NCBI RefSeq assembly: GCF_056746865.1
Contig: NZ_CM163382.1
DNA length: 64,000 nt
Reading direction: 5' to 3' (one strand)
Shown here: piece by piece, positions 49,147 to 51,001 of the stretch
How the letters are laid out: each line of letters begins with the position of its first letter
How positions within the stretch are numbered: position 1 is the first letter of the stretch
Translations under genes and position numbers: made by a program
Notes under the pieces: generated by a model
Told to the model about the DNA's origin: nothing
Seen by the model: the letters and a program-made list of their open reading frames with translations, nothing else
Databases searched by the model: none

Positions 49147-49566
49147 AATATTTCAGTCAATTGTAATCGCGGGGCGGGTTTGTGATGAGCGCGGATATGT
49201 CACGAAGTCGTGACAATATAAAGCAGAGTGAAGGATAAATTTTGTGAATAAAGTATCATTATTTAATGATTTTGTGAATGTTTAAATTTCTCAGATAATT
49301 TGTTTAAGCGTTATTTATATTTGTGGCTTATGAGTCAGCGTGAATTATATCTAATATTTTTTACGATATTTGGTTAAAAACGGCACTATTGTTATATTCC
49401 TCACGTTCCAGGAAATCAGCGGATTTACTCATATTATGCAGCGGGATACTATCCATCGGCCTGCTGAAGTTGGATTGAAAATTCGAAAGTGCACACCTTA
49501 TATTTCTCTATATACGTATTCCTTTTGGAAAGCGTAGGGTCTCTTTTATTTCAGGGAACGTAAATA

Positions 49567-50961
49567 ATGAAAAAATCGACATTATCTTTAGCCATCGGTT
49601 TATTATTGGCATGTAGTACCGGAATGGCAAAAACACAGCATTTAACGCTGGAACAACGCATGGCATTGCTGGAAGAACGCCTGGAAGCGGCAGAAATGCG
49701 GGCAGCAAAAGCAGAGAGCCAGGTTAAACAGCTGCAGACACAACAAGCCGCTGAGATCCGCGAAATTAAGGCTGCCCAGGGCAATACGCCGGTAAATGGA
49801 CAGGCAACGGCGGAATCTGCAAAGAAAAATTCCACCTCACCTAATCTTTTGCTCTCAGGTTATGGCGATTTAAAAATCTACGGCGACGTAGAATTTAATA
49901 TGGATGCAGAAAGTAATCATGGCCTGCTGGCAATGACCAACGCTGATGTGAATAGCGATCCCACTAATGAACAGTGGAATCTCAATGGTCGTATTCTGTT
50001 AGGTTTTGATGGTATGCGAAAACTGGATAATGGTTATTTCGCCGGGTTCTCCGCGCAACCGCTGGGGGACATGCACGGTTCAGTAAATATCGATGATGCG
50101 GTATTCTTCTTTGGCAAAGAAAACGACTGGAAGGTCAAAGTAGGCCGTTTCGAAGCCTACGATATGTTCCCGCTGAATCAGGATACCTTTGTTGAACATT
50201 CCGGTAATACTGCGAACGATCTTTATGACGATGGCAGCGGTTATATCTATATGATGAAAGAGGGCCGCGGGCGCTCTAACGCTGGCGGTAATTTTCTCGT
50301 CAGCAAACAACTTGATAACTGGTATTTTGAATTAAACACGTTACTTGAAGACGGAACATCTTTATATAATGACGGTAATTATCATGGACGCGATATGGAG
50401 CAGCAGAAAAATGTTGCTTATCTGCGTCCGGTAATTGCCTGGTCGCCGACGGAAGAATTTACCGTTTCCGCAGCGATGGAAGCGAACGTGGTAAATAATG
50501 CTTATGGTTATACCGATAGCAAGGGTAATTTTGTCGATCAGTCCGATCGTACCGGCTATGGTATGAGCATGACCTGGAATGGCCTGAAAACGGATCCGGA
50601 AAATGGCGTCGTGGTTAATCTTAATACCGCCTATTTAGATGCTAATAATGAGAAAGATTTCACTGCCGGGATTAACGCGCTGTGGAAACGTTTCGAGCTG
50701 GGTTATATCTACGCGCACAATAAGATTGATGAATTCAGCGGTGTAGTTTGTGATAACGACTGCTGGATTGATGATGAAGGGACGTACACCATTCACACCA
50801 TTCATGCGTCTTATCAGTTCGCTAATGTGATGGATATGGAGAACTTTAATATTTACCTCGGGACGTATTACTCCATTCTGGATAGCGACGGTGATAAAAA
50901 ACACGGTGATGATACTGATGACCGTTACGGCGCACGCGTTCGCTTTAAATACTTCTTCTGA
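49567..50961 (+). CDS. Outer-membrane beta-barrel protein with N-terminal coiled coil (carbohydrate-porin-like)
   Basis: 464 aa; signal peptide MKKSTLSLAIGLLLACSTGMA, heptad-like LEQRMALLEERLEAAEMRAAKAESQVKQL segment, alternating aromatic/polar strands, C-terminal RFKYFF. Confidence 0.65.
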   Translation: MKKSTLSLAIGLLLACSTGMAKTQHLTLEQRMALLEERLEAAEMRAAKAESQVKQLQTQQAAEIREIKAAQGNTPVNGQATAESAKKNSTSPNLLLSGYGDLKIYGDVEFNMDAESNHGLLAMTNADVNSDPTNEQWNLNGRILLGFDGMRKLDNGYFAGFSAQPLGDMHGSVNIDDAVFFFGKENDWKVKVGRFEAYDMFPLNQDTFVEHSGNTANDLYDDGSGYIYMMKEGRGRSNAGGNFLVSKQLDNWYFELNTLLEDGTSLYNDGNYHGRDMEQQKNVAYLRPVIAWSPTEEFTVSAAMEANVVNNAYGYTDSKGNFVDQSDRTGYGMSMTWNGLKTDPENGVVVNLNTAYLDANNEKDFTAGINALWKRFELGYIYAHNKIDEFSGVVCDNDCWIDDEGTYTIHTIHASYQFANVMDMENFNIYLGTYYSILDSDGDKKHGDDTDDRYGARVRFKYFF

Positions 50962-51001
50962 TGAAGGCGCGGTGCTGGATATTTTCCGGCACCGCAACTC
51001 A

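Follow-up and report, generated by a model that had tools for sequence, protein, structure and literature searches.

A RafY-family glycoporin gene between two independent deletions in the yiiG-rhaM interval of the Escherichia coli chromosome

We analysed a 64,000-nucleotide stretch of the Escherichia coli chromosome (NCBI RefSeq assembly GCF_056746865.1, contig NZ_CM163382.1; hereafter the window, whose numbering is used unless stated otherwise), in which a porin gene lies between a remnant of yiiG and rhaM. The open reading frame (ORF), located in the ORF list and in the raw sequence, occupies 49567-50961 on the forward strand; it is intact, starts with ATG and encodes 464 amino acids (aa), beginning with MKKSTLSLAIGLLLACSTGMAKTQ and ending in RFKYFF, the last phenylalanine being the terminal aromatic residue to which the initial annotation of this DNA had drawn attention. 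The neighbours are, in order, fdoI/H/G, fdhD, a short yiiG-like ORF, the porin ORF, rhaM-rhaD-rhaA-rhaB on the reverse strand and rhaS on the forward strand. From the end of the preceding ORF to the ATG there are 420 bp (49147-49566) with a guanine-cytosine (GC) content of 34.5%, versus 50% for the whole window and 45% for the porin gene, in agreement with the very AT-rich leader of about 420 bp described earlier. The gene is an ordinary RafY-family outer-membrane channel gene, already catalogued, annotated and named: RefSeq calls it 'carbohydrate porin', and its exact sequence is present on at least 1000 public contigs.

A Pfam scan matched residues 104-464 of the protein to Porin_8 (PF16966, 'Porin-like glycoporin RafY') with E=3.7e-154 over the full length of the model (positions 1-372 of 372). 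The same family was found in all 43 sequences of our homologue alignment, in which identity falls as low as 25%. The window porin thus belongs, as a chromosomal representative, to the RafY glycoporins (Pfam Porin_8, TCDB 1.B.15), and the earlier proposal of an outer-membrane porin gene of a carbohydrate-porin family stands. The family is small, with 233 cluster representatives at E<=0.001 among 1.84 billion, many of them without the N-terminal extension. On the E. coli plasmid p1380_1, a porin of the same length (464 aa) and 79% identical to the window porin over 450 aa is encoded directly downstream of genes for a LacI-type regulator, an alpha-galactosidase, a major facilitator superfamily (MFS) permease and a glycoside hydrolase family 32 (GH32) invertase, which is the classical rafR-rafA-rafB-rafD-rafY arrangement. 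Through this porin the window protein can be compared with plasmid RafY (for example, that of pRSD2): both have the full-length Pfam family match, the signal peptide, the N-terminal helix, the linker, the barrel, a VVC-x3-C loop motif and the RFKYFF end. The window gene, however, is chromosomal and stands alone beside rhaM, whereas the plasmid gene follows rafRABD.

The initial annotation had likened the protein to ScrY-type porins, which raises the alternative that it is a substrate-specific channel of the ScrY/LamB type, with 18 strands, a greasy slide and a saturable sugar-binding site. The comparison is apt as regards the general role, since ScrY and LamB are functional analogues as outer-membrane sugar channels, and probably also as regards the N-terminal stalk: ScrY has an N-terminal periplasmic coiled coil with a weakly homologous segment, and the corresponding family, Sugarporin_N (PF11471), gave a weak match to residues 27-54 of the window porin (E=0.06) and matched 5 of the 43 relatives at E<=0.001 and 14 at E<=0.1. 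It fails for the barrel itself. The LamB family (PF02264, 18-strand) matched neither the window porin, even at E<=10, nor any of the 43 relatives, and the barrel predicted for the window porin is not the 18-strand LamB type but has 16 strands. We therefore consider a ScrY/LamB-type channel extremely improbable.

The N-terminus is a cleavable signal peptide of 21 residues (49567-49629, forward strand), MKKSTLSLAIGLLLACSTGMA followed by KT, with a signal peptidase I site after GMA and before K; this reading of the sequence and of the orthologues bears out the earlier proposal. The LLAC sequence resembles a lipobox, and we considered Cys16 as a lipobox cysteine; this candidate was rejected, as the position is A or N in the Citrobacter and Klebsiella orthologues. 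Because Cys16 is not conserved while the cleavage site, G-(M/F)-A before K, is kept, the window porin is not a lipoprotein.

AlphaFold2, run on the 43-sequence alignment, gave a model with a mean predicted local distance difference test score (pLDDT) of 81.5 and a predicted template modelling score (pTM) of 0.72. After the signal-peptide helix, the model has one long helix at residues 28-70 (49648-49776, forward strand; pLDDT ~86), a flexible linker (residues 71-99, 49777-49863, forward strand), disordered at residues 72-98, and 16 long beta-strands over residues 100-463, so that the barrel domain of Porin_8/RafY, with the C-terminal phenylalanine and the stop codon, spans residues 100-464 (49864-50961, forward strand). 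Both the coiled-coil-like N-terminal segment and the strand-like segments noticed before any modelling are, thus, recovered in the prediction, and the strand number agrees with that predicted for the RafY family in TCDB. The helix probably forms a coiled coil. In the allele of strain Nissle 1917 exactly seven residues of this helix are missing (R31-E37), a change that a coiled coil would be expected to tolerate, as the heptad register is kept. Between strands 5 and 6 the model has a 46-residue strand-free segment (residues 195-240), highly conserved, to which most of the family-invariant residues (G193, D206, Y228 and R236) are assigned, together with the near-invariant E196, A197, R234, G235 and G241; by its placement, as in classical porins, the segment is a candidate constriction loop. 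In the model the barrel is structurally nearer to classical trimeric porins than to LamB/ScrY. Among the former, DcaP of Acinetobacter baumannii and OprP of Pseudomonas are 16-strand trimeric porins that resemble it at the level of the fold only; their sequence identity to it is 11-12%, and their substrates are dicarboxylates and phosphate.

We compared the yiiG-rhaM interval among E. coli strains and found three arrangements, consistent with the initial description of a strain-variable locus. In K-12 MG1655 the order is yiiG-frvR-frvX-frvB-frvA-rhaM; frvA and rhaM are 300 bp apart there, and the porin is missing. In the window BLAST found no frv sequence between yiiG and rhaM; the earlier statement that K-12 has frvRXBA there, and that the window differs in content, was therefore correct. 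However, SMS-3-5 and O157:H7 (PV15-279) have yiiG-frvRXBA-porin-rhaM, that is, both elements. In the third arrangement, found in the window, in strain EC21Z-147 and in Nissle 1917, a yiiG remnant is followed by the porin and rhaM. Since O157:H7 and SMS-3-5 carry frv as well as the porin, the porin did not replace frv, contrary to the suggestion that it occupies the place of the operon; the window instead carries a deletion of frv.

This deletion can be read directly from the alignment with SMS-3-5 (L002 in our numbering of loci): window position 49146 joins position 4065, which precedes the yiiG stop by 19 bp, to position 8874, just upstream of the frvA start (junction 49146-49147). The deletion is clean, and the 4.8 kb lost comprised the 3' end of yiiG, frvR, frvX, frvB, frvA and ~17 bp upstream of the frvA start (L002 8857-8873). 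A second deletion, of 470 bp with its junction at 48523-48530, removed the start and the signal peptide of yiiG. What is left of this DUF3829 lipoprotein gene (48484-49146, forward strand; delimited by BLAST junctions against K-12 and SMS-3-5) is a frameshifted pseudogene, the last 19 bp of which went with the frv deletion; the 3' end of the yiiG-like ORF is in a different frame from intact yiiG, and in close relatives RefSeq flags yiiG as 'frameshifted; incomplete'. Nissle 1917, of phylogroup B2, aligns contiguously with the window across both junctions, so the deletion events are common to the two; in Nissle 1917 the yiiG remnant has lost another 125 bp from its interior.

The same comparison changes the view of the AT-rich leader. 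Window positions 49146-49246 match DNA just upstream of frvA in SMS-3-5 and O157:H7, and the spacer at 49147-49566 is thus mostly the ancestral divergent frvA-porin intergenic control region rather than simply a leader: its distal part (~49147-49245) is former frvA upstream DNA, and its proximal part contains the predicted porin promoter and 5' untranslated region (UTR). In K-12 the frvA-rhaM spacer is a diverged copy of the frvA-proximal part only, with no trace of the porin ORF, whereas at least one other porin-less genome, HS30-1, retains the last 77 bp of the porin gene. These remnants differ, which points to more than one porin loss event. The loss of the porin from K-12 and the loss of frv from the window are independent deletions. 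In addition, in strain MS14387, whose genome is the closest to the window (100% identity across 3 kb), the same porin allele is interrupted by an IS1 (L019 3268-4034, corresponding to ~49833 of the window) and survives as two pseudogene fragments.

To place these arrangements in the species, we counted them over 5426 complete E. coli genomes, taking at least 80% coverage as presence. The porin was present in 2557 genomes (47%) and frvRXBA in 4185 (77%), while 1208 (22%) were without any match to frv. The window-type arrangement, scored as a single place that matches at least 80% of positions 48400-51400, was found in 1166 genomes (21%). By subtraction, we estimate that both elements are present in ~1390 genomes and frv only in ~2800. 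A related porin copy was found in 200 places on plasmids.

A gene with these features may be suspected of being foreign. Indeed, the initial annotation proposed a horizontal origin, and in its full form this alternative says that an acquired gene replaced frv and that H-NS, by binding the AT-rich leader, silences it. It draws on the low GC content of the upstream region and of the gene relative to the window, on the presence of the gene in only ~47% of E. coli genomes and on the related copies that travel on plasmids. The comparison of eight loci from six genera speaks against it. The orthologue of Citrobacter spp. (85% identity) is convergent with rhaM, as are those of C. rodentium and Kluyvera, and that of Klebsiella sp. 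B345, which follows rafR-rafA-rafB. An Enterobacter isolate has the porin divergent from frvA, as in SMS-3-5 and O157:H7, and then rafR-rafA-rafB. In K. grimontii the porin is three genes from rhaM, and its neighbours encode a LacI regulator, a beta-helix protein and an MFS permease; in Buttiauxella it closes a cluster of ATP-binding cassette (ABC) transporter, GH13 and GH130 genes; for two distant homologues (P0128 and P0126) the surrounding sequence was either short or of no help. The position beside rhaM or frvA, common to Citrobacter, Kluyvera, Klebsiella and Enterobacter, indicates an ancestral gene and not a recent import.

Composition gave a mixed picture. The gene is lower in GC content than the window, but its GC content at third codon positions (GC3) follows each host (E. 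coli, 46.5%; Citrobacter, 62.7%; Klebsiella, 60.5%), and the 300 bp upstream of the orthologues have a GC content of 29-32% even in genomes of 51-57% GC; the AT-rich upstream DNA is, thus, a trait of the family and not a mark of import. The plasmid gene was not the source, as its GC3 is only 34.8%, versus 46.5% for the window copy, and its DNA identity to the chromosomal gene only ~86%. There are no tRNA genes in the 64-kb window, and in close relatives the annotation of the locus lists neither a transposase nor an integrase, apart from the IS1 of MS14387. A scan of the locus for the H-NS consensus motif, which is uninformative alone, showed no local enrichment. With the coexistence of frv and the porin in O157:H7 and SMS-3-5 added, import followed by silencing is improbable, though H-NS itself may nonetheless occupy the spacer. 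The best reading of these comparisons is an ancestral porin that was once partnered with sugar-use genes; E. coli has it as an orphan, and some lineages no longer have it.

An orphan of this kind might also be a functionless relic that has been decaying since the neighbouring raf genes were lost. The absence of raf partner genes from the window, the loss of the porin from roughly half of the genomes and its interruption by IS1 in MS14387 are all in line with such decay, as is the pseudogene state of the adjacent yiiG. The substitution pattern is not. The ratio of non-synonymous to synonymous substitutions (dN/dS) was 0.046 between the window and O157:H7 alleles (dS 0.10) and 0.045 between the window and Nissle 1917 alleles (dS 0.24), and values of ~0.045 mean strong purifying selection and hence a functional gene. 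The window and SMS-3-5 proteins are identical despite a difference of ~2% in DNA between the genes. Between the window and Nissle 1917 (49567-50958 versus L017 6501-7871) there are 11 aligned residue differences and the deletion of one heptad described above, the only indel observed, which keeps the heptad register. The upstream control elements are, moreover, conserved across genera (see below). A decaying relic is, on this evidence, very unlikely, and we keep to the functional ancestral porin. The dS of 0.24, high for E. coli, suggests old allelic lineages or recombination at the locus.

We aligned the upstream regions of E. coli, two Citrobacter, Kluyvera, Enterobacter and Klebsiella, which revealed three conserved blocks. 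The first, TGTTA-N6-TCACG (49390-49405, forward strand), has half-sites conserved across the five genera and a spacer that varies, the pattern of a CRP site. The second begins with TTTAC(T/A/C), exactly 18 nt after TCACG in E. coli, Citrobacter, Kluyvera and Enterobacter, and continues with TAnTnn, aligned 17 nt after the TTTAC element in the same four genera. In the window these correspond to a predicted sigma-70 promoter (49424-49452, forward strand) with the -35 element TTTACT (49424-49429), a spacing of 17 bp and the -10 element TACTAT (49447-49452). The third block, TTTATTTCA(A/G)GGAA, stands directly before the ATG and includes the ribosome-binding site. Transcription would then start near 49459, with the CRP-like site centred at -61.5, a class I geometry. 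A mechanical promoter scan had favoured a downstream candidate, TTGAAA-18-TATATT (49475-49504); we rejected it, as its TTGAAA hexamer depends on the G at window position 49477, which is an A in four other E. coli alleles (ATTGAAAA versus ATTAAAAA). Another CRP-like match, TGTGAATAAAGTATCA (49243-49258), with two mismatches, lies in the former frvA upstream DNA and may be a leftover of frv operon control.

Within the predicted 5' UTR, ACGUAUUCC-UUUU-GGAAAGCGU can form a small hairpin (49514-49535, forward strand). In minimum free energy (MFE) folds E. coli, Citrobacter and Kluyvera all have a hairpin equally far from the ATG, though the stems differ in sequence; in Enterobacter a hairpin GGAAUUGC-UUCG-GCAAUGCC can be drawn by eye at the same position, though it is absent from the MFE fold. 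The element is weakly supported: the stability of the E. coli hairpin is unremarkable (z=-1.8), the predicted 5' UTR as a whole folds no better than shuffled sequences (z=0.29), and RNAalifold returned no consensus structure over nine upstream regions. Rfam, searched at a permissive threshold, matched nothing in 48400-51400. Downstream of the gene, between the convergent porin and rhaM, is a GC-rich hairpin (50969-50995), and the 46 nt that include it (50959-51004) fold at -27.1 kcal/mol, far below shuffled sequences (z=-6.5). It lacks a U-tract, and is probably a bidirectional terminator of the porin and rhaM.

A few other features of the region were noted. The sole zero-mismatch CRP match of the 64-kb window is a perfect palindromic consensus, TGTGACAAATATCACA (47633-47648), within the opening codons of the called fdhD ORF (47601-48434). 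In fdoG (44357-47407, reverse strand) two ORFs of 804 and 195 aa are separated by an in-frame stop, which we take to be the UGA selenocysteine codon of formate dehydrogenase O and not a disruption. SMS-3-5 has two extra genes upstream of yiiG (L002 1-2834), for an 'ATP-binding protein' cut at the edge of the locus and a hypothetical protein of 768 aa; they are absent between fdhD and yiiG in K-12 and in the window (fdhD lies outside the SMS-3-5 stretch that was fetched), and could be a small defence-type insertion. In O157:H7 PV15-279, rhaS and rhaT (L018 12272-14395) are annotated as pseudogenes with internal stops, beside the intact porin. Finally, the rhaD-rhaA spacer is ~82 bp long in the window (52151-52232) and in SMS-3-5, and ~450 bp in K-12 (L004 10274-10723) and Nissle 1917 (L017 9064-9523), where the extra length looks like an inserted repeat element.

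Several reports bear on the family. Plasmid RafY has been reported to be a wide diffusion channel that raises the uptake of raffinose, sucrose, maltose and maltodextrins. In O157:H7 strains that lack rafRABD, a rafY homologue has been annotated as rafY2 (PMC4809568), and in the O157:H7 genome that we examined a carbohydrate-porin gene is found at the same locus as the window porin. In one E. coli collection, 22 of the 45 rafY-positive isolates were without a complete rafABD operon, a figure that fits an orphan chromosomal copy, with the reservation that two rafY genes were not distinguished there. Klebsiella pneumoniae GlyP is a RafY-family porin under the LacI-type repressor GlyR, and derepressed GlyP gives an advantage in carbohydrate competition to an OmpK35/36-deficient strain (bioRxiv 10.64898/2026.03.29.715108). 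Compared by description, GlyP is like the window porin in family and in having been proposed as an alternative, wider porin for carbohydrate uptake; it differs in that it belongs to an operon with a permease, a hydrolase and the repressor, whereas neither a regulator nor catabolic genes adjoin the E. coli gene. Lactulose induces a RafY homologue of Salmonella, and RafY of K. pneumoniae was purified in work on candidate vaccines.

Taken together, we consider it very likely that the gene encodes a chromosomal RafY glycoporin with a 16-strand barrel, an ancestral orphan that would serve as an oligosaccharide channel and be expressed from a promoter helped by CRP. Several of our results weigh against this reading. 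No NCBIfam model matched the porin (or the yiiG fragment), and the search of PDB sequences returned only noise (E ~0.8), that is, no relative with a solved structure, so that the assignment of the fold rests on prediction; the prediction itself is weak in the linker and over some of the candidate constriction loop (residues 211-220, pLDDT 49). By tblastn, none of rafR, rafA, rafB and rafD was found in the 64-kb window, which removes a clue to the substrate. The CRP-like site has two mismatches to TGTGA-N6-TCACA, and such matches are no more frequent in the window than expected (26 found versus 26 expected); the mechanical promoter scan, with a count not above that of shuffled sequences, pointed elsewhere, and the promoter model rests, therefore, on conservation only. 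The absence of the gene from about half of E. coli genomes and its disruption by IS1 in MS14387 mean that it is dispensable. The searchable literature yielded no experimental work on the chromosomal copy of E. coli.

On this reading, the porin would be exported via its 21-residue signal peptide and inserted in the outer membrane as a 16-strand beta-barrel, most likely, by analogy with its structural neighbours, as a trimer. The long conserved loop of residues 195-240 would fold into the lumen of the barrel, and the periplasmic helix at the N-terminus would make up a coiled-coil stalk beneath the trimer, comparable to those of ScrY and DcaP. By analogy with plasmid RafY, the channel would most likely be a wide one through which di- to oligosaccharides, for example maltodextrins and sugars of the raffinose family, enter faster when their external concentration is low. 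Transcription would begin ~108 nt before the ATG, with CRP at -61.5 assisting the promoter, and expression, on this CRP model, would be expected when preferred sugars are scarce. In E. coli the porin is an orphan, alone between the rha operon and either frvA or the scar of the deleted frv operon, lineages such as K-12 having lost the porin, and lineages such as that of the window and phylogroup B2 having lost frv.

The porin was already known, and nothing in it is unexpected for the RafY family; the value of the analysis is modest. It corrects a tempting misreading, as what appears to be a foreign porin in the place of frv is an old resident gene between two independent deletions, and it provides a three-state map of the yiiG-rhaM interval across the complete E. 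coli genomes, evidence that the chromosomal rafY homologue, although it lacks raf partners, is kept by strong purifying selection, and a concrete promoter model with CRP at -61.5. A related Klebsiella porin has recently been reported to compensate for the loss of major porins. There is a modest upside if the E. coli copy acts as a spare wide channel in the lineages that keep it. We suggest, as a speculative possibility that may well prove wrong, that the orphan porin is a CRP-controlled wide 'spare' channel, the presence or absence of which (present in ~47% of E. coli genomes, among them the B2 and O157:H7 representatives, and absent from K-12) would alter the foraging for oligosaccharides in the gut and, by analogy with Klebsiella GlyP, the tolerance of OmpC or OmpF loss under antibiotic pressure. 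The repeated loss of the porin might then reflect a trade-off with attack by phages or colicins on the exposed barrel.

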